This document shows positions 7,866 to 58,150 of a stretch of 64,000 nt of DNA, one piece after another. Each line of letters begins with the position of its first letter. Position 1 is the stretch's first letter. Below the pieces are notes generated by a model, which was not told the DNA's origin, searched no databases, and saw only the letters and a program-made list of their open reading frames with translations. Both the position numbers and the translations under genes were made by a program. Source of the DNA: Minisyncoccota bacterium (GTDB taxonomy: Bacteria > Patescibacteriota > Minisyncoccia > Phycocordibacterales > XYD1-FULL-46-19); the NCBI GenBank assembly GCA_041657405.1, contig JBBABX010000001.1, positions 12,152-76,151 of the forward strand, given 5' to 3'.

Positions 7866-8481
7866 TTTTCAATTTATTAATGATTGCTTCTACCAATTCC
7901 TTAGGTGATTTTTCCGAATTAAAAATTTCAAAATTTACCCCCGACTTGTTAAGAACACTTTTGGCTGAAAGATAATTTTTTTCGCTAGCTTCGCGCCAAA
8001 TTTCCACTTGTGATTTAGGAAAATCTTCCCTGACACCATAGCCTCTTCGGGCTAAGCGTTCTTTCCTTTTATCAAAAGATAATTCTAAAACTACTAAAAA
8101 CTCCGGATAAATAAAATTTTTTAAATAACCAATAAAAAAATCAGCAGTTTTTGGTTCGCCAAAAACTGAAAGAAGGTTCTGAAAATAGCCCTGGTCGATA
8201 ACAGCATTTGAAAATCTTTTTGCTTTTTGATATTTAGCATTATGGATGACGAAACAATTCATAAATTTGTAGTAAAAATCTTTCCAAGCCACAGAAGCAT
8301 TTATAATATAAGAAAGACCTTTTATAAATTTTAGAGGGTGTTTTAAAAAAAATAAGATATTATAAAAAAACCACTCACGCCTAGTATTAATCCTAACTAG
8401 AACAAAACCATTTTGTTCAGCCAATAATTTAGAAACTGTCGTCTTACCAGTAGCTGGTAGACCAAAAAATTCAACAATCAT
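7852..8481 (-). CDS. P-loop NTPase (kinase/sulfotransferase-like) of unknown specificity.
   Basis: Walker A FFGLPATGKTT near the N-terminus; about 200 aa. Embedded in the glycan operon. The start may be the upstream ATG at 8511. Confidence 0.4.
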   Translation of the reverse strand: MIVEFFGLPATGKTTVSKLLAEQNGFVLVRINTRREWFFYNILFFLKHPLKFIKGLSYIINASVAWKDFYYKFMNCFVIHNAKYQKAKRFSNAVIDQGYFQNLLSVFGEPKTADFFIGYLKNFIYPEFLVVLELSFDKRKERLARRGYGVREDFPKSQVEIWREASEKNYLSAKSVLNKSGVNFEIFNSEKSPKELVEAIINKLKNGSY

Positions 8482-9202
8482 CTTTGGTAAATTTAAAACA
8501 ATAAGATTCAACCAAAAAACGACTAATCAAACCAAATTTGCGCCCAACCAATAATTTTCCAAACAATTTATCAAGCATCAAATTTTTCAAAAGAGGCACG
8601 GTTACCGTCACTCCGTAAGGACCCGAAACTTTAAAACCGGCTTGAACCAACAAAGTTTTTAATTTAGTCGGTAAAATTTGCCCTTGATGAATTTGCGGCA
8701 CTTTTTGCCTTTTAAGGCGGTAAAAAAGATAGCGCGGATTTTTCGTAATAATAACACCCAAACTTCCAAATTTTAGAAGATCAAAAATTTTTTTCACAGC
8801 TAAATTTTTGTCTGGCAAATATTCCAAAGCCCGAGATGAAAAAAAGAAGTCAAACTGACACTCCGGCGCAAAACTCATAAAGTCAGAGAGAACAAAATTA
8901 AGAGAATCCGAATCGGAAAGATTTTGTTTGGCCAAAGAGAGCATTTCATTGGAAATATCCACCAAAGTAAAGTTCGCTCCCGACTTTTTGTCTAGAAAAA
9001 ACTTAGTCCAAGTCCCTGGCCCTGGACCAAATTCTAGGTAATTAGAAAAAATAAGATTCTGATTTAAAAAAACTTTTTCAAGCGCTTGCTTGGTCTGATC
9101 ATAACCAAGTTTTGCTTGGTCATCTTTAAACCAACGCCAAAATTCATAATCTGAAAAAAACTTTTCTTTGACTTGCTTGTCGTAAATCTTTTCGAAATTC
9201 AT
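8471..9202 (-). CDS. Class I SAM-dependent methyltransferase.
   Basis: Motif I LEFGPGPGTWT. Confidence 0.6.
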   Translation of the reverse strand: MNFEKIYDKQVKEKFFSDYEFWRWFKDDQAKLGYDQTKQALEKVFLNQNLIFSNYLEFGPGPGTWTKFFLDKKSGANFTLVDISNEMLSLAKQNLSDSDSLNFVLSDFMSFAPECQFDFFFSSRALEYLPDKNLAVKKIFDLLKFGSLGVIITKNPRYLFYRLKRQKVPQIHQGQILPTKLKTLLVQAGFKVSGPYGVTVTVPLLKNLMLDKLFGKLLVGRKFGLISRFLVESYCFKFTKDDC

Positions 9203-9216
9203 TAATTTAATGTAAT

Positions 9217-10251
9217 TTAATTCAAACTAGTTATTAATTTTTCGACAAGCAATTTAAGACCGTGATGTCTTGCAACATAATCTTGAAGTTCTGAAACTAA
9301 TTTTCTTTTTTCAGCCGGAGCTAAACCCAAAAGTTCTCTTAATTTTTTGGCCAAATCAACAAAATCATCTTCTTCAAAAATTAAGCGATCGTCAATTTCC
9401 CCAATTAAATTCTGGTTGCAAACCAGGACCAAACAACCACAGGCCATTGCTTCAAAAATTGTTTTGTCATACATCCCGCTTGAGCTAAGATTAACAAAAA
9501 TTTCGTGACTGCGATAGATTTTAGGCGCCTGATGGTTTGTCACACCAGCATAAAAAGTAAGATTATCGACTAAGATTGAATCTGCAACATTTTGTTTTAA
9601 GGTTTCTGCCCAAATCTGATTATCCGGCAAATAATCACCATAAAAACTAACTTTAAAATCTACCCTATCTTCAGCTAACAATTTTAGGGCTGAAATGAAA
9701 ATATCTGGTTTTTTGACAGGAGCCAAACGCGCTAAAAATAAAATTTTTCCAAGACGAAAATCATTATTTTTTTCAAGCGAATTAAAAAAACTCAAATTAA
9801 TCCCGACCGGCATAAGAATATTCTTTTTAAATTTTGCGGTGTATGAATAACGCGAGGTGCAAAAAATTTTATGACAAAGAGCAACTGCTAAATTAGTTAA
9901 ACAATTACCAGCATGATGATTTCGCCACATTGTAATTTTTTTGCCCATAAGTCGCCACCAACAACCTGCTAATAAAACATACTCCTGATTCATATGCACA
10001 AAAACTGTGTCATAGTTTTTTCGTTCCTGCCAAAGATATTTATAAAAACGCCAAATATATTTAAATTTCGATTGCCCTTCTTCTTTGCCTAGTGACAGCA
10101 CCTTAACCCCTGATAAATCATATTCGCCCTTCTCTAAACAGATAATTGTCATCTGTTTAACATGTTCAGCAAATTCTTTTAACCAACCATGGAAAAACCC
10201 TAAAATTGGGTCATTTTTATCGACTTTTTGGGTGATAATTAAAAGCTTCAC
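9217..10251 (-). CDS. GT1/GT4 glycosyltransferase.
   Basis: Carries FEAMACGCLVLV in a C-terminal GT-B domain. Confidence 0.65.
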   Translation of the reverse strand: MKLLIITQKVDKNDPILGFFHGWLKEFAEHVKQMTIICLEKGEYDLSGVKVLSLGKEEGQSKFKYIWRFYKYLWQERKNYDTVFVHMNQEYVLLAGCWWRLMGKKITMWRNHHAGNCLTNLAVALCHKIFCTSRYSYTAKFKKNILMPVGINLSFFNSLEKNNDFRLGKILFLARLAPVKKPDIFISALKLLAEDRVDFKVSFYGDYLPDNQIWAETLKQNVADSILVDNLTFYAGVTNHQAPKIYRSHEIFVNLSSSGMYDKTIFEAMACGCLVLVCNQNLIGEIDDRLIFEEDDFVDLAKKLRELLGLAPAEKRKLVSELQDYVARHHGLKLLVEKLITSLN

Positions 10252-15946: not shown

Positions 15947-16636
15947 TCAGGCTTGCGCCAGAGCCGAAGGTTCCGAGAACCCCAGATCTGACTTGCGAGA
16001 GAACACCTGGTCGCCAACACGCCACCCGAGCGGGCTCAGGGCGGAGTTCGCCCAGACGCACCAGCCGCCGCCGCCCCAGTCCACGTCGACCGCGCGAAGC
16101 ACACCAGCCTGGTCCCGAATGTAGAAGATGTTGGCGTAGCCGTTGTTCAAGAGAACACCGTTTTCACCATTCTTCTTCTTCTCCATCAAGAAGAACATTT
16201 CCGTCAAAGTGGTTTCGGATTTCTCCTCGCCACCCAGTTCGGTAATGATGGGACCATCAACTGAAGACTTCCGTAATTTGTGGTAGCGGAGCGTCTGTTC
16301 GCTCGTCGGGTCTTCGGTCTTGCCGTCGCCCGACAGAAACCAGCTGGTAAAGCTGTCCCAGACTGCCGAGATCTTCACCGAAGCGTTGCGCTTGGTGTTG
16401 ACCACAAACTTGTCTTTGGCGACGAACTTGCCGGTGGTTGCGGGAATCACAACCGCTCCAACTGGCTCAAAAATTGAGGGGTTGGGTTTAGCGACCCCAT
16501 TCCAGCAGGGTTCCTTGCGGAGGAACTTCTTCAATTCCCCCAACCACTCCTCCCAGTCCTTTCCAGAGAGTTTCTCAAACAGATCATTCAGCAGTCCCTG
16601 AACCTCGGAGAGTGCTACGCCGAGCATGTCTACCAT
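15947..16636 (-). CDS. GC-rich paralog A: hypothetical protein with an FGE/C-type-lectin-like C-terminus (RGGGW...GDQVFSR). Candidate DGR variable protein.
   Basis: A 229 aa ORF at about 55-60% GC in a ~35% GC window. It is homologous to 18965..19687. The conserved promoter supplies AGGAGG 6 nt before the ATG. Confidence 0.6.
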   Translation of the reverse strand: MVDMLGVALSEVQGLLNDLFEKLSGKDWEEWLGELKKFLRKEPCWNGVAKPNPSIFEPVGAVVIPATTGKFVAKDKFVVNTKRNASVKISAVWDSFTSWFLSGDGKTEDPTSEQTLRYHKLRKSSVDGPIITELGGEEKSETTLTEMFFLMEKKKNGENGVLLNNGYANIFYIRDQAGVLRAVDVDWGGGGWCVWANSALSPLGWRVGDQVFSRKSDLGFSEPSALAQA

Positions 16637-16745: not shown

Positions 16746-16828
16746 AAGATAACCAAAAATAAGTATTTTGACTCCCCCACCTTAAAAATAGTCCGGAGAC
16801 GATTTTTAAGGTGATCAAAACATCTTAA

Positions 16829-16880
16829 AATCCCCCAATCTCCCAAAAATTCGCCTGAATTTTTGGGAGATTGGGGGATT
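16829..16880. terminator. 21 bp perfect inverted repeat (aatcccccaatctcccaaaaa / tttttgggagattgggggatt) with a 10 nt loop. Probable terminator of the upstream gene and insulator.
   Basis: An exact stem read from the sequence, followed by a T-rich tract. It lies between the end of the glycoside-hydrolase-like gene and the paralog A promoter. Confidence 0.5.
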
Positions 16881-16941
16881 TGAGAATTGTTTTTTCATCT
16901 TTTTTCAAGAAAAAAGTCTAAAATTTGATAATTATTTTTAA

Positions 16942-19851: not shown

Positions 19852-19898
19852 GGCTAGGTCCGTCCTAGACCAAAAAATGGTCTAGGACGGACCTGGCC
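19852..19898. terminator. 20 bp inverted repeat (ggctaggtccgtcctagacc / ggtctaggacggacctggcc) with loop aaaaaat, between murC and the paralog B promoter.
   Basis: Read directly from the sequence; one T/C difference between the arms (U-G in RNA). Confidence 0.5.
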
Positions 19899-22212: not shown

Positions 22213-23610
22213 CTATATTCTCTTCACTTGCTTATTAAATTGATCCCCCCGATCGTACTCATTCTTGAACACCCCAAAACTCGCTGCGCCAGGCGACAAA
22301 AGCACAACATCTCCCCGCTTGGCCTTGGATTTAGCCCAAGCAAAAGCCTCTTTCATATTATCAAAAACCCTAATCGCCTCCCTGGAGAGGGTAACCCTCT
22401 CCTCAGAGCCCTGGAGAGGGTTACCCTCTCCAGGGCCTCCTTCTGTTAAGAATTTTAGGATTTTATCAGTCGCCGTACCACGAAACAGCGCCAGGGCTTT
22501 GATATTTTGTCTGACCACTTTGATATAAGTAGTGTAGTCCAGATTTTTGTCGGCTCCGCCACCTAACAAAATAATTTTGCCTTTGTACTTTTTGAGCGCT
22601 TCTAAGGCGGCCAAGACCGCATCCGGCGTGGTGGCATTGGTGTCGTTATAATATTTGACTCCGCCTTTGTCGGCAATTAATTCCAACCGCCCCGACAAGC
22701 CCGGAAACTCGGCAATCGCTTTTTTGCTAATCTTGTCAGGTACACCCAGTTCGCGCGCGGCCGCAACGGCTAGGGCAATGTTCTCTACATTATGTTCGCC
22801 CAGCAAGTTGTGTTTCCAACTGGCTGGCAAATCACTTTTTTTGATAATTTTAAATCGCCCTTTAATACCCGCCTTGTCTTTTTCTTTAATCACCTTGGCG
22901 GCTTGCGGTCGCGCGAGCAAAATATCAGCTTTAGTTTGCCAACGATAAATATTCGCCTTGTCGGCAAAATACTTTTCCATGCTGTCCTTATAGTAATTTT
23001 GATGGTCATTCAAAAAAGTGGTAAACAAGGCAAGGTGTGGACTAATCCGGCTTTCGCCAAAACCTTGCAATTGCCAGGAATCAAGTTCCATCACGACAAA
23101 ATCGCCTGGTTTAACTTTTTTAAGCAAAGGCAAAGTTGCAATTCCCTTAACATTACCTCCTAAATAAACCCTCTTATCACCAAAATTTTCTTTTAAAATT
23201 TCACATAATAAATGAGTCACCATACTCTTGCCACGCGTGCCAGTTACACCAACAATTTTTACTCCGGCTGGTGCTAATTTTACAAAAAGCGAGGCATCCA
23301 TTTCTACTGAGATTTTGCATTTCTTGGCCTCGGCAATAAACGGCGAATCAAGTGGCACACCAGCAGCTTTAATTATCATGTCGCGGTCTTGAAAATCTTT
23401 AAGTTTATGTTCGCCAAGAATATATTTTATATTTTTGAAACTAGTTAGTTTTTTGAGCGAAGGAGCCAATTGTTCTTTTGTCTTCAAATCAGTCACAACC
23501 AGATCGGCATTATTTTCGGCCAAAAACTTAACCACCCCAATCCCCCTTCCCAAGAGACCAAGACCCATCACGGTGATTTTTCGCCCTTGAAAATAACTTT
23601 TATAGTCCAT
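22213..23610 (-). CDS. murD: UDP-N-acetylmuramoylalanine--D-glutamate ligase, carrying an in-frame REP-derived insertion near the C-terminus.
   Basis: N-terminus KITVMGLGLLGRGIG and VGVTGTRGKS. The start is set at MDYKSYF because the track ORF extends into the tRNA. Confidence 0.8.
   Translation of the reverse strand: MDYKSYFQGRKITVMGLGLLGRGIGVVKFLAENNADLVVTDLKTKEQLAPSLKKLTSFKNIKYILGEHKLKDFQDRDMIIKAAGVPLDSPFIAEAKKCKISVEMDASLFVKLAPAGVKIVGVTGTRGKSMVTHLLCEILKENFGDKRVYLGGNVKGIATLPLLKKVKPGDFVVMELDSWQLQGFGESRISPHLALFTTFLNDHQNYYKDSMEKYFADKANIYRWQTKADILLARPQAAKVIKEKDKAGIKGRFKIIKKSDLPASWKHNLLGEHNVENIALAVAAARELGVPDKISKKAIAEFPGLSGRLELIADKGGVKYYNDTNATTPDAVLAALEALKKYKGKIILLGGGADKNLDYTTYIKVVRQNIKALALFRGTATDKILKFLTEGGPGEGNPLQGSEERVTLSREAIRVFDNMKEAFAWAKSKAKRGDVVLLSPGAASFGVFKNEYDRGDQFNKQVKRI
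22381..22437. repeat. REP-like palindromic doublet (ggagagggtaaccctctcc and ctggagagggttaccctctccag) inserted inside the murD coding sequence.
   Basis: Hairpin units with a 7 bp stem (GAGAGGG/CCCTCTC) and a 3 nt loop. The same 19-21 nt unit flanks the Y1 transposase at 47.7 and 48.5 kb. murD reads through as GPGEGNPLQGSEERVTLSREAIRV. Confidence 0.6.
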
Positions 23611-23669
23611 AAAGAACATTTTAGCACAAGAAAAACTTAGGTAAAAACTCCGCCGAAGCGGGGTTCCTG

Positions 23670-23743
23670 TGCGCATGGTAGGACTCGAACCTACGACCTC
23701 GTCATTATCAGTGACGCGCTCTAACCACCTGAGCTACACGCGC
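23670..23743 (-). tRNA. tRNA-Ile (anticodon GAT).
   Basis: A cloverleaf folded by hand: acceptor GCGCGTG/CATGCGC, D-arm GCTC-AGGTGGTTA-GAGC, anticodon loop CTGATAA, T-arm GTAGG-TTCGAGT-CCTAC, discriminator A, CCA not encoded. Confidence 0.8.
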
Positions 23744-24661: not shown

Positions 24662-24877
24662 GTTTAAGCATTACAATTTTTTTAGGATATTATCTTTTCT
24701 TCTGTTCCGTTTCCCAATTTAACGATTAAGGGGTATCGAGTTCCTTGTTGTTTCGATTTCTTCGAAAAAAACCGAAAGAGTGCGGAGAACTATCACTCTC
24801 GCCATGTCAATAAATTGACATGGCGATCGACCAGTCAGGCCATTAGCCGTTAAACGGCAAGATCTGACCAGTTCAAT

Positions 24878-26372
<1,495 letters not shown>

Positions 26373-26831
26373 AAAAATATCCGCTTTTTGCTAAAGCTTA
26401 AGCAAGATATTGAAATTTGCATCACTTATAATAGTGGCAAATTTCATAAACGGAACAGAAGAAAAAATAATATTGCTTCTGAGATTTGGCTTTTTCTCGG
26501 TTACTGACACCGAGAAAAGTATTTTGCTGACTTTGCCTTGTCAGTGTTCATCCAGAACACAGATAGGCTTCAGCTTTTACTTGTTTCCAAGTTAAGCTGA
26601 TTTTGTAATGCTTTGATATTAAATTGACAATGAACCCAACAAACGACTATTTATTTATAGCCTTGTTTCTTATTATATATAGTAAAAACAGAAAGTCAAC
26701 CCTGTAAACCGAGAACGACAACGACCAAGAATTTATGGTCTTCAAACTCAAATAAATCAATCAGTAAAAAAATAAGGACTCTTCCTAAAATGACTGTTAT
26801 TAATTTAATAGGACAAACTAATCAAAATTAT

Positions 26832-36349: not shown

Positions 36350-36466
36350 AATACTTTGTTCCGGCGGTTAGCTACTCTCCCCTTGCGAGTACCATCGCTA
36401 CGACCGAGCTTAACTTCTCTGTTCGGGATGGTAAGAGGTGTGACCTCGGCGTCAAACCACCAGAAC
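36350..36466 (-). rRNA. rrf: 5S ribosomal RNA.
   Basis: The reverse complement begins GTTCTGGTGGTTTGACGCCGAGGTCACACC and contains CCGAACAGAGAAGTTAAGC and GATGGTACT, with a terminal helix pairing the 5' and 3' ends. Confidence 0.8.
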
Positions 36467-36504
36467 AAAATATTCGAAATCAAACAAATGGTTTTCAAAT
36501 TTCC

Positions 36505-39668
<3,164 letters not shown>

Positions 39669-39867
39669 ATTAGGAAATTTAAAAACCATTATATTTATTT
39701 TTATACTTACATTTTTATTTTAGTGTTCTATGTTTTAAAAACATAGTTCTACCTTTTTCCATCTCTCAAACCACAAGACCCCTTGCATGTCTGATGATGG
39801 CATTCAATTTTCAAAGTTCAGTCATTCAGAGAAACCTTATTCAAGACGGATATTCCAGCAAAGCTGA

Positions 39868-39894: not shown

Positions 39895-40039
39895 CCAGAG
39901 CCAGGCCAAAACAATCGGGGCTACAGTTTCCGCTTAATTTTGGGTTTTTCTTTAATATTCATACTGACATTTATTAGTATATACGAAAATAAAAACGTGT
40001 CAATACATAAACTTCAAACAACAAGATTTACCCCTATAT

Positions 40040-40070
40040 AAAAATACCCATAAAATTATGGGTATTTTTA
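40040..40070. terminator. AT-rich palindromic terminator (aaaatacccataa-aat-tatgggtatttt) immediately downstream of the 40115..40801 gene.
   Basis: A 12 bp inverted repeat flanked by A and T runs. Confidence 0.45.
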
Positions 40071-40114
40071 TGAAATTCTTTTTTGATTTCAGATTTTGAT
40101 TTCAGAAGTAATAA

Positions 40115-41624: not shown

Positions 41625-41720
41625 AGATTAGCTCTAAGCAATAACAAAACTAAGTTCTAAATTTTAAACGACTCAACCTGAACAGGTTGAGTCGTTTAAA
41701 AAAAGAGTCTAAAACAAGCT

Positions 41721-42759: not shown

Positions 42760-43099
42760 ATAATAAATAAACTTTAGCGAACAAAGCTAGTTTTCCATTG
42801 TTTGTAAATGACCAAACAATGGAAAAATTTTAGTCATTTTTTTCTTTCTCTTGGTTCACCCTTGACTCTTGAGAGAAACAAAATTATTGAAAATTATGAA
42901 GACTTCATTTCTTTAATTCTCAATAAAAAAAACGGCTAAAAACCGCTTGGATCGACACGTCGCCCGAGTATTCTCGGCGACCCTCGGTAGGATTTAATCT
43001 TGCGATACCTACTGTCTACGGTTGATTTTATTATTAACTATTTTAAATCGAAAGTCAACAAAAAAATATTGAGAAAACATTGAGATTGATCGTTAAAAT
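42760..43099 (-). promoter_or_regulatory. Long (~340 nt) structured untranslated leader upstream of rplJ. Candidate L10 autoregulatory leader.
   Basis: A GC-rich hairpin (gtcgcccgagta/ttctcggcgac) sits in otherwise AT-rich non-coding sequence directly 5' of rplJ. Confidence 0.3.
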
Positions 43100-47611: not shown

Positions 47612-47691
47612 ATTTTTAAATTTATGAATTCAAATTATTTATAATGTTACCACTTAAAAATCTTCATGAAACCCTCTCTTCCCCCAAACCT

Positions 47692-47750
47692 GTGGATAAC
47701 TAGCCAATCTAGGAGAGGGTAACCCTCTCCTAGATTGGCTAGTTATCCAC
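47692..47750. repeat. 28 bp-stem extended palindrome containing the REP core (gtggataactagccaatctaggagagggtaaccctctcctagattggctagttatccac) at the 3' end of the Y1 transposase.
   Basis: A perfect inverted repeat around GAGAGGG-TAA-CCCTCTC that overlaps the transposase stop codon. Confidence 0.55.
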
Positions 47751-48428
47751 TCTTTCTTTTTCTAACTCTTCTCTCCTCTTTTTATAGTCCATAACTAACA
47801 AATCAATATCTGATTCTTCAAAATCAGGGAATTCTTTTCTATCCAACAAGTTTGATTCTGGTCTTTCCCCAACAAAAAAATCATAATAGCTGGAAAAAGA
47901 ATGGGCATCCAAACTCTTTTTTATTTCGTCAATATTAGAATTCTCTTCACTTTCCCACTCGGGAAACCTTACTTTTACAGGGTTTAGATGGATGTAAGAA
48001 ATTAGATATTGATAGTAACTTTCGGAATCAATATGTTGAGCTTTAAAAGTACCTTCAAATAATCTACCCCTTCTTTTATATTTTAAATTAAAAAACATAG
48101 AGTGGCTCGTTTGTATTTTATTTAAAAACTTTGATATGCCACCTTCTTCAACTTCCTTAAGTAGCAAGTGAAAGTGGTTTGGCATCAGACAATAAGCACC
48201 AATATTAACAAGTGGATCACCTTTTCTTTTTGTTAAAAAGATATTTTTACCTCTATTTTCTTTAAAAATCTTTTCCATAGTAATTGGTTCCTTGTTGTTT
48301 AAAGCATAAAGAATCTTTACAAATCTAGAATGGTCATTTTTATCCTTAAAAATAACACGTTTTTCAACACCACGATTATAAATGTGGTAATATTCATCCA
48401 TTGCAAATTTAAATTTCCTTTCCACCAT
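47739..48428 (-). mobile_element. tnpA: IS200/IS605-family Y1 (HuH) transposase (REP-associated tyrosine transposase-like) with an acidic C-terminal extension.
   Basis: YHIYNRGVEKRVIF...CLMPNHFHLLL (HuH motif)...YQYLISYIHLNPVK (catalytic Tyr region). It is flanked on both sides by palindromes carrying the same core. Confidence 0.7.
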
Positions 48429-48456
48429 TATATTATAATATTATATACCAAATCGG

Positions 48457-48517
48457 AAGAGAGGGTTACCCTCCAAGGAGGAAAAGAGGAGAGGGTAACC
48501 CTCTCCTCTTTTCCTCC
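48457..48517. repeat. REP-like palindromes at the 5' flank of the transposase (gaagagagggttaccctcc, plus an extended 19 bp-stem palindrome ggaggaaaagaggagagggtaaccctctcctcttttcctcc).
   Basis: The same GAGAGGGT(A/T)ACCCTCTC core as at 22381..22437 and 47692..47750. Confidence 0.55.
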
Positions 48518-48607
48518 TTAAGAAAACTCCCAAGCATTGTGTAAAAGCTGCCATAGGGCGGACCTGGTCGAAGTTAGGAAGGCAGGGAAAACAATATATG
48601 CGCCTCT

Positions 48608-49528: not shown

Positions 49529-49817
49529 AATATTTAAATTATAAAATATCCAAACAAGTCTGACAACAAATAACCCGACTATAATTTAACTTTTGAAATA
49601 AGAACAATCTCTCCCAAGCCACTTTTTCATAAAATACTACACTTATTAATCTCACGAACTTTAAAAAAGTATCCCCAAAAAACTTCCCTCTTGATATTAA
49701 ATTTTCCCGAAGCCATTTTTGCTTGTCTTTTTTATTCTTTGTCTCATTTTTGTTTATTTTCGGCAACATAAGCAAGTTGAAATAAAATAGGCTTGGTCCA
49801 ACTTGCAACATCGGGAA

Positions 49818-49849
49818 ATAAAAAAACCACCCGAAAGGGTGGTTTTTTT
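49818..49849. terminator. Bidirectional rho-independent terminator (A9-ccaccc-gaaa-gggtgg-T7) downstream of 49867..51825.
   Basis: A perfect 6 bp GC stem with a GAAA tetraloop, flanked by A and T runs. Confidence 0.6.
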
Positions 49850-49866
49850 ATTTCAACTAACTAAGA

Positions 49867-58122: not shown

Positions 58123-58150
58123 AAAAAAAAACGCTTAGAAGCGTTTTTTT
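58123..58150. terminator. Bidirectional rho-independent terminator (A-run-aaacgctt-ag-aagcgttt-T-run) between efp (+) and rpsR (-).
   Basis: An inverted repeat flanked by A9 and T7. Confidence 0.55.

Follow-up and report, generated by a model that had tools for sequence, protein, structure and literature searches.

The stretch of DNA analysed here (the window: 64,000 nucleotides from a Minisyncoccota bacterium, contig JBBABX010000001.1 of assembly GCA_041657405.1) carries a gene for a HUH protein with a single catalytic tyrosine (Y1), which lies between inverted copies of a palindrome, and the same palindrome is found in frame inside murD, about 25 kb away. The Y1 gene occupies positions 47739-48428 on the reverse strand and encodes 229 amino acids. 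A preliminary description of the locus had claimed a HuH/Y1 protein of this length, and rightly so: the open reading frame (ORF) contains NHFHLLL and YLISYIHLNPVK, and the Pfam family Y1_Tnp matches residues 73-147, and only these, with 32.1 bits against a cutoff of 23. The HUH motif is N84-H85-F86-H87 and that of the catalytic tyrosine Y145-I-H-L-N149-P150. In an alignment of 40 homologues H85, H87, Y145, N149 and P150 are invariant, and the catalytic motifs of the protein appear intact. In a scan of NCBIfam the sole match was REP_Tyr_transpos (NF047646; E = 2e-11, 43.9 bits).

Behind the catalytic tyrosine the protein continues for about 75 residues. This part had been described as an acidic C-terminal extension of about 70 residues; the extension as such stands, but it is not an idiosyncratic acidic tail. 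Among the 40 homologues W158, S179, S180 and R189 are invariant and F200 and P201 nearly so, while variability is confined to the last ~20 residues, and because of these invariant residues the C-terminal part is, judging from the alignment, a conserved domain. No match to a helix-turn-helix (HTH) domain (Bac_DnaA_C, HTH_23, HTH_28) was found in the protein by Pfam at E <= 1. An AlphaFold (AF2) model built on the alignment reached a predicted local distance difference test score (pLDDT) of 87 and a predicted template modelling score (pTM) of 0.86; in it the tail consists of short helices only and one long terminal helix. A comparison of folds was needed because the sequence profile, when run against the PDB, could not separate ISDra2 TnpA (E = 0.12) from TnpAREP (E = 0.21). 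The best structural match of the model was 4er8, the E. coli TnpAREP bound to the hairpin of a repetitive extragenic palindrome (REP), with a Foldseek E of 4e-4, the values for IS608 and ISDra2 TnpA being weaker (~1e-2). F124-E125 of the Y1 protein aligns to W94-Q95 of TnpAREP.

The Y1 gene is a member of a very large clade of Patescibacteria. When 1.84 billion cluster representatives were searched with a profile, 1,291 of them were recovered at E <= 1e-30 and 14,952 at E <= 1e-10; by the former threshold, the family comprises at least 1,291 clusters at 50% identity. More than 7,890 homologues were listed, the closest being 98% identical and the next best just 54%. The consensus motifs are NHFH, LF[EQ]G, YIHLNP and YSSY, and lengths range from 216 to 262 residues. 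An identical Y1 protein is recorded in four contigs, including the NCBI metagenome-assembled genome (MAG) GCA_964388635.1, and the neighbours are the same in each. The sources of the nearest relatives of the window's proteins label them Paceibacterota, Parcubacteria, Vogelbacteria or Lloydbacteria.

The genomic position of the gene is shared by four of the five genomes examined. At the loci L001 (the window), L006, L009 and L011 it lies directly downstream of a gene of ~650 codons with a PG_binding_1 domain, with ftsK, recA and efp further upstream and rplJ-rplL downstream, even though the four Y1 proteins are just 49-54% identical. L007 differs, its Y1 gene being placed between a gene of a class II aminoacyl-tRNA synthetase and mraZ. 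No tnpB was found among the genes neighbouring the Y1 gene. In L011 a second Y1 gene (8058-8732, with the motifs YVERNA and WSS) lies 1.3 kb upstream of the orthologue and is followed by a palindrome of its own, GGAAGCCCCCGTACGGGGGCTTCC, at 8767-8790. Since it is just 23% identical to the orthologue, it belongs to a different subfamily and is no duplicate, and this genome therefore has two Y1 subfamilies in tandem whose hairpins differ.

The hairpins around the Y1 gene of the window have in common the core GGAGAGGGT-W-ACCCTCTCC, whereas their outer arms are unrelated to one another. We call this cognate palindrome REP-A. Downstream of the gene, a palindrome of 59 nt spans 47692-47750, with 29-nt arms that are 100% complementary around one central base; in it, perfect arms specific to this locus add 20 nt to the REP-A core (47712-47730). 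The last three codons and the stop (GTG GAT AAC TAG) fall within the arm nearer to the gene, in agreement with the perfect palindrome with a 28-bp stem over the stop codon described previously. Folded as single-stranded DNA (ssDNA), this palindrome gives a 28-bp stem closed by a 3-nt loop, at -33.2 kcal/mol (z = -15); the ssDNA folds of the REP-A structures as a set have -33, -28 and -29 kcal/mol and z of -15, -6.8 and -8. The outermost 3' piece of the unit is a half-site, AACCCTCTCTTCC, at 47670-47682, which is the exact reverse complement of 48455-48467 and was absent from the earlier list of features. On the upstream side lies a palindrome of 45 nt with 22-nt perfect arms (48475-48519, core 48488-48506), adjoined by a partial second hairpin, GGAAGAGAGGGTTACCCTCCA (48455-48475), with two mismatches to the core. 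The centre base of the latter is opposite to that of its neighbour, so that the pair, spaced by 30 nt, is an inverted doublet. Two hairpins with the same core had been claimed here; the claim holds for the perfect one and only in part for the other. The unit bounded by hairpins is ~830 bp long. When up to two mismatches to the 17-nt core GAGAGGGTWACCCTCTC are allowed, five sites are found in the window (22385, 22414, 47713, 48459 and 48489) and none in 100 shuffles of it. The GGGGWSAS motif of terminal inverted repeats is absent from the flanking hairpins.

Between the upstream hairpin and the ATG, a promoter-like extended -10 element (TGGTATATAAT, then TATAAT; 48431-48450, reverse strand) was read by eye; a scan for sigma-70 promoters made no call at 48431-48450. 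Independent assemblies break at the REP-A palindromes: L002 and L004 start 53 nt before the ATG of the Y1 gene, and L005 ends within the 3' palindrome. Repeats could account for such breaks, and so could the confusion of de Bruijn assemblers by palindromes. Long perfect palindromes occur generally in this genome: further perfect hairpins with 12-25-nt arms, each unique, were seen 3' of genes at 16828-16881, 40038-40071, 41662-41701, 49815-49854 and 58125-58150, and these are probably terminators.

Hairpins accompany the Y1 gene in the relatives as well, each genome having its own. In L007, CCGCTAGG-TCTTT-CCTAGCGG stands upstream and its inverse downstream, with two further exact copies within 2.2 kb; the exact 21-mer CCGCTAGGTCTTTCCTAGCGG is found 20 nt ahead of the ATG, and its reverse complement follows 5 nt past the stop codon. 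In L009 both sides of the gene carry TTCAAGGCCGGACCTTG as an inverted doublet, and the pair on the upstream side makes up a perfect palindrome with 28-nt arms; L011 has ACGGAGGG-CTA-CCCTCCGT upstream and the inverse downstream. In these three relatives the hairpins thus flank the gene on both sides, but in L006 on the upstream side only, where a doublet with 16-nt arms is found, together with one related palindrome within the Y1 gene and two copies 6 kb away. The palindrome inside the gene of L006, TTCGGGAAGGAC-A-GTCCTTCCCGAA at 10164-10188, is perfect, in frame, and encodes FREGQSFP; it is kin to the upstream hairpin and recalls the REP insertions within tnpAREP genes of subclass 2.4. The closest homologue (L011, 54%) also has the most similar core, GAGGGCTACCCTC versus GAGGGTAACCCTC, with 11 of 13 positions in agreement. 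In all five loci 19-29 nt separate the end of the upstream hairpin from the ATG; the hairpin abuts a TG-N-TATAAT box in the window, L006, L007 and L011, while L009 has a weak TAGAAT (all read by eye). This vicinity to a -10-like box suggests, without proving it, that the upstream hairpin may also be an operator. The arrangement around the Y1 gene is that of a REPtron.

The same hairpins had been reported inside murD, 25 kb away, and they are indeed there. murD itself, which lies outside the unit, occupies 22213-23610 on the reverse strand within an ORF of 22213-23676. A gene for tRNA-Ile(GAT) at 23669-23743 abuts its 5' end and is overlapped by the longest murD ORF, and for this reason the true start is probably the codon at MDYKS or MFFMDYKS. 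The insert at 22376-22442 adds ~21 residues in frame and contains two REP-A cores 29 nt apart, one at 22384-22402 whose centre base is A and one at 22413-22431 whose centre base is T. Because their centre bases are opposite, they constitute an inverted, REPIN-like pair, which is read in frame as GPGEGNPLQGSEERVTLSRE and can be folded as two hairpins or as one 23-bp hairpin. Solitary hairpins away from the Y1 gene, which the preliminary description had taken as a mark of a REP system, are thus present, but within a gene and in frame instead of extragenic. The peptides encoded by REP-A matched nothing in the protein database at E <= 10, not even MurD, so that this search was uninformative.

The insert is missing from MurD orthologues at 60-66% identity and was found in MurD of the window, in its 100% match on a 201-kb contig, in P0122 and in P0123: the REP-A doublet entered murD in frame in one lineage. 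The murD of L071 (P0123) has 83% nucleotide identity to that of the window, and both 19-nt cores are unchanged. In the outer stem of its hairpin 1 three pairs are changed, each with full compensation (GCCCT..AGGGC in the window, AATCTT..AAGATT in L071), the resulting peptide being GPGEGNPLQGS in the window and NLGEGNPLQDS in L071. As the compensated pairs changed the peptide, the symmetry of the DNA was kept at the cost of the MurD protein sequence. L070 (P0122) was considered as an independent witness of the insert and rejected, because over the ~660 nt that surround the insert (alignment columns 721-1380) it shows 100% identity to the window, save for the centre base of hairpin 1, and the rest of the gene has 80-85% identity. 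This pattern points to recombination between strains or to a chimeric metagenome assembly. A 6-nt repeat, GGAGGC, on both sides of the doublet was likewise rejected as evidence of a target-site duplication, since it is absent from the L071 orthologue.

Other palindromes occur in murD as well. In the sister lineage L068 and L069 (77% identity) the same loop holds, within 1-2 codons of the same place, a different palindrome, TTGGTCTAGGTCCGTCCTAGATC/GATCTAGGACGGACCTAGACCAA, in frame (L068 1430-1480; L069 3040-3090); this second family (GGTCCGTCCTAGACC ... GGTCTAGGACGGACC) is intergenic in the window, at 19856-19894 downstream of murC. A second murD site, which follows ENY(E/Q)A, holds a third palindrome in frame, ACCGTTCGAC-CAAGA-GTCGAACGGT, in L070 (~540-600) and L071 (~2490-2560), and a decayed form of it in L069; the site is empty in L068 and in the window (~23140-23180). 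This pattern of empty and filled sites is at odds with the murD tree. From the different families and the empty and filled sites among the lineages, we conclude that palindromes enter and persist in tolerated loops of murD, and possibly leave them.

Changes in the arms were seen at the Y1 gene too. In the strain variant L005 (P0001, 98% amino acid identity) AGA is changed to CCT directly 5' of the 29-nt palindrome. In the window, the AGG that stands across the palindrome is the exact complement of this CCT, and if the far flank of L005 is AGG as well, the change would lengthen the arms to 32 nt and replace Arg by Pro. In the upstream hairpin of L005 the centre base is flipped. DNA hairpins are known to undergo template-switch mutation and inversion of their loops, and the compensated pairs in murD together with the changes in L005 may be understood as the signature of mutation templated from arm to arm, combined with inversion of the loop. 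Such templated mutation would offer an explanation for a constant core with perfect arms that are specific to each locus, and it would require no Y1 enzyme.

Copies were counted in the window and in L072, a 9.9-kb extension reached through the protein at the edge, which makes 74 kb in total. In these 74 kb tblastn found one copy of the Y1 gene and no fragments of it, and the 9.9-kb extension holds no copy of REP-A. Among 72,556 plasmid records, 12 contain a relative of the Y1 protein, all with less than 37% identity. According to Bertels et al., properties of this kind distinguish domesticated REP-associated tyrosine transposases (RAYTs) from insertion sequences (IS), and being single in these 74 kb, syntenic in four of five genomes and rare on plasmids, the Y1 gene would resemble a domesticated RAYT that is probably inherited vertically. 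The flanking 16-mer of Bertels Group 1 has ~12 occurrences, and in the sequence covered REP-A looks like a low-copy family of the same sort.

From these results, the ORF is probably a domesticated, chromosomally fixed HUH/Y1 ssDNA endonuclease of the RAYT/TIRYT type (TnpAY1 class 2; TIRYT refers to tyrosine transposases associated with terminal inverted repeats), which forms a REPtron-like unit with its flanking REP-A palindromes. The preference for RAYT/REP over IS200 expressed in the preliminary description is upheld by the Y---NP motif, the TnpAREP-like fold, the single copy in 74 kb, the synteny and the inverted flanking hairpins. By analogy with E. coli TnpAREP and with the TnpA of IS608 and ISDra2, the Y1 protein would bind the REP-A hairpin on ssDNA, for example on the lagging-strand template, and the loop base (A or T) alone would tell the two strands of the palindrome apart. 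Tyr145 would then cut beside the hairpin, with His85 and His87 holding a metal ion, and the end would be rejoined to another single-stranded site, so that REP-A doublets might occasionally be copied elsewhere. After insertion, templated correction from arm to arm and flipping of the loop would produce locus-specific perfect arms on a constant core. The protein may also repress its own promoter, as the upstream hairpin adjoins the -10-like box.

Several observations weigh against this interpretation. The REP_Tyr_transpos score of 43.9 bits is below the equivalog cutoff of 80, and binding, cleavage and strand transfer are deduced by homology at 13-16% identity to the solved Y1 enzymes. The motifs of the protein are those of subclass 2.1, yet no REPs stand beside subclass 2.1 genes according to Quentin et al. 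(PMC6006769). Outside the flanks of the Y1 gene, one REP-A doublet (that in murD) was found in 74 kb, and the copies seen in the 20-kb loci of L007, L009 and L011 are gathered within ~2 kb of the Y1 gene. Exact matches of the 17-nt core to contigs of species-representative genomes yielded 33 singletons from taxa unrelated to this one, several of which resemble terminators, and the 19-nt core occurs in 22 stretches of the metagenome contigs of the Joint Genome Institute (JGI), just two of which (L046 and L055) are from this organism, both representing this locus. A 4-nt guide beside the hairpins, as envisaged earlier, was not borne out: there is no conserved GT[AG]G foot at the five REP-A copies, whose flanking bases differ (the GTGG at the start of the 47692 palindrome occurs at that palindrome only and by chance), and no such tag on the homologue hairpins of the loci examined. 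Finally, long perfect hairpins are frequent 3' of the genes of the window, and for this reason a part of the flanking structure could be plain terminators.

The last point leads to the main rival explanation, in which the hairpins are regulatory structures of the host (terminators, operators or stabilisers of RNA), the Y1 protein is a domesticated factor that binds or processes hairpins but has ceased to mobilise DNA, and the murD copy and the changes in the arms result from template switching during replication. Besides the many other long perfect hairpins downstream of genes, it would account for the upstream hairpin abutting a -10-like box (weak in L009), for the similar cores that form terminator-like hairpins in unrelated contigs, for the seemingly low copy number, and for the compensated changes, the 3-nt cluster and the centre-base flips, which as templated mutations need no transposase. 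We nevertheless hold it to be unlikely. A 63-nt doublet with two exact 19-nt cores in murD, 25 kb off, needs copying from a REP-A donor; the His-x-His and the tyrosine are invariant across a family of this size, which on the evidence of the alignment argues for retained catalysis; and unrelated hairpins in different genomes always pair with this Y1 gene, which is the hallmark of RAYTs. Were the unit of 830 bp instead an autonomous minimal IS of the IS200/IS605 group, the flanking hairpins would represent its two ends, left and right, and those in murD would be leftovers or miniature derivatives. The compactness of a unit bounded by hairpins, the match to Y1_Tnp, the other neighbourhood of the L007 homologue, the second Y1 gene beside that of L011 and the assemblies that break at the hairpins could all be cited for it. 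The contig breaks prove nothing, since palindromes by themselves can break de Bruijn assemblies, and the second gene of L011 is of a different subfamily, at 23% identity. The motif is Y---NP and not Y---Q; the protein has 229 residues with a conserved tail, compared with ~150 residues of the IS200 core, and its modelled fold appears nearer to TnpAREP. Furthermore, the gene is single in 74 kb without fragments, syntenic in four genomes at ~50% protein identity and without tnpB among its neighbours, and the same palindrome stands inverted at both ends, where an IS of this group would have distinct left and right ends. Such an element is therefore very improbable. Least credible of all is that an unrelated transposase of the DDE type moves REP-A as a miniature inverted-repeat element, the position of REP-A beside the Y1 gene being a coincidence. 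The possible 6-nt direct repeat GGAGGC around the murD doublet of the window would agree with this, but it is absent at the orthologous insert of L071, no other transposase was recognised near the copies, and five independent genomes each have a hairpin family of their own beside this Y1 gene.

A bolder form of the RAYT interpretation may be conceived, in which the Y1 gene is a clade-wide, near-housekeeping "palindrome writer" of Patescibacteria, a nick at the REP core on ssDNA seeding snap-back or template-switch synthesis that grows long perfect palindromes from local sequence. We regard this as quite doubtful. If it were true, its products would be terminators, an operator on its own promoter and in-frame peptide inserts in essential enzymes, and hairpin-prone loops that tolerate insertions, such as the C-terminal loop of murD, would be hit repeatedly by successive families as specificity drifts.

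Systems of RAYTs and REPs are reportedly studied almost entirely in Proteobacteria, and a search of the literature for them in the Candidate Phyla Radiation found nothing. The Y1 family presented here is large, syntenic across Paceibacteria and paired with genome-specific hairpins, and small genomes make the gain, loss and turnover of hairpins easy to trace. It connects the subclass 2.1 motif class, described as devoid of REPs, with hairpin repeats, and it allows palindromes to be seen colonising tolerated loops of MurD, an essential cell-wall enzyme, with their symmetry kept at the expense of the protein. For annotation, it follows that Y1 genes labelled "transposase" in MAGs of Patescibacteria are no evidence of IS activity; palindromes of the REP-A type also break assemblies. 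Worth following up are the synteny throughout the phylum, the entry of successive palindrome families into murD in frame, and the templated growth of stems.

Some further features of the window were recorded. Another ORF of 229 codons (15947-16636, reverse strand) has 56% GC in a window of 38% GC and was rejected as a Y1 paralogue, as it has no Pfam match and no tblastn match to the Y1 query. It is located between a DUF4015 and a TrwB-like gene, which are direct neighbours in L068 and L069, so that the ORF was probably inserted recently from a foreign source; the perfect palindrome at 16828-16881 (25-nt arms) lies ~190 nt upstream of it. The bacterial rRNA genes are found at 24877-26375 (16S), 36503-39672 (23S) and 36359-36464 (5S), so that 16S and 23S are ~10 kb apart with protein-coding genes in between. 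The 23S match has 3,170 nt as compared with 2,925 nt of the model, and this excess suggests that ~245 nt are inserted. A ribosomal L10 leader (42917-43039) precedes rplJ.

With regard to known systems, Quentin et al. 2018 (PMC6006769, Table 1) give Y---Q as the signature of IS200 and Y---NP as that of all class-2 (TnpAREP-like) proteins, and by its YIHLNP motif the present family belongs to class 2 and not to IS200. The TnpA of IS200/IS605 (IS608, ISDra2) shares with it the Y1 HUH fold and the logic of recognising hairpins on ssDNA, but has Y---Q and ~150 residues, is multicopy and works on distinct left and right ends. The E. coli TnpAREP (Bertels Group 2, subclass 2.2) is closer in having the HUH motif and a single catalytic tyrosine in Y---NP, and its REPtron is likewise a single-copy chromosomal gene between inverted copies or doublets of its own palindrome, which belongs to a genome-specific family. 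The identity to it is nevertheless 13-16%, F124 replaces the conserved W94, and the Y1 protein adds the conserved 75-residue tail with an SS motif; unlike E. coli REPs, the palindromes here are perfect, without a bulge and without a GTAG foot, and one dispersed doublet is found in 74 kb. In the Group 3 RAYTs (REPtrons of S. maltophilia and Marinomonas; Corneloup et al. 2021) the REPs are perfect palindromes as well, with the strand information in the loop bases, just as the sole asymmetry of REP-A is its centre base, A or T. Those REPs, however, keep GTAG, are short and number in the hundreds, and their proteins lack a long tail.

Palindromes in frame in genes of known function, often as dimers, are also known as intragenic REPs and Rickettsia palindromic elements; Di Nocera et al. 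describe, in other phyla, intragenic REP dimers that encode 20-30 residues and REP ends that supply TAG stops. Family, phylum and core differ here, and one murD loop hosts different families in sister lineages. Judged by its motifs, the Y1 protein fits TnpAY1 subclass 2.1 (Bertels Group 1, "TIRYT") and not the E. coli-type subclass 2.2: it has NH[YF]H, F[EQ] instead of WQ, Y[IV]HLNP and SS in the proximal tail, as well as a length near the ~238 residues of this subclass and a flanking repeat of apparently low to moderate copy number. Subclass 2.1 has been described without REP-like hairpins, its features being a distal HTH and terminal inverted repeats of the GGGGWSAS type (TIRYT/TIRtron, Di Nocera et al. 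2013), whereas the flanks here are self-complementary hairpins, GGGGWSAS is missing and no HTH is seen by Pfam. The system is thus a new lineage of a known kind, situated in Patescibacteria, with 2.1-like motifs and with hairpins in place of terminal inverted repeats.

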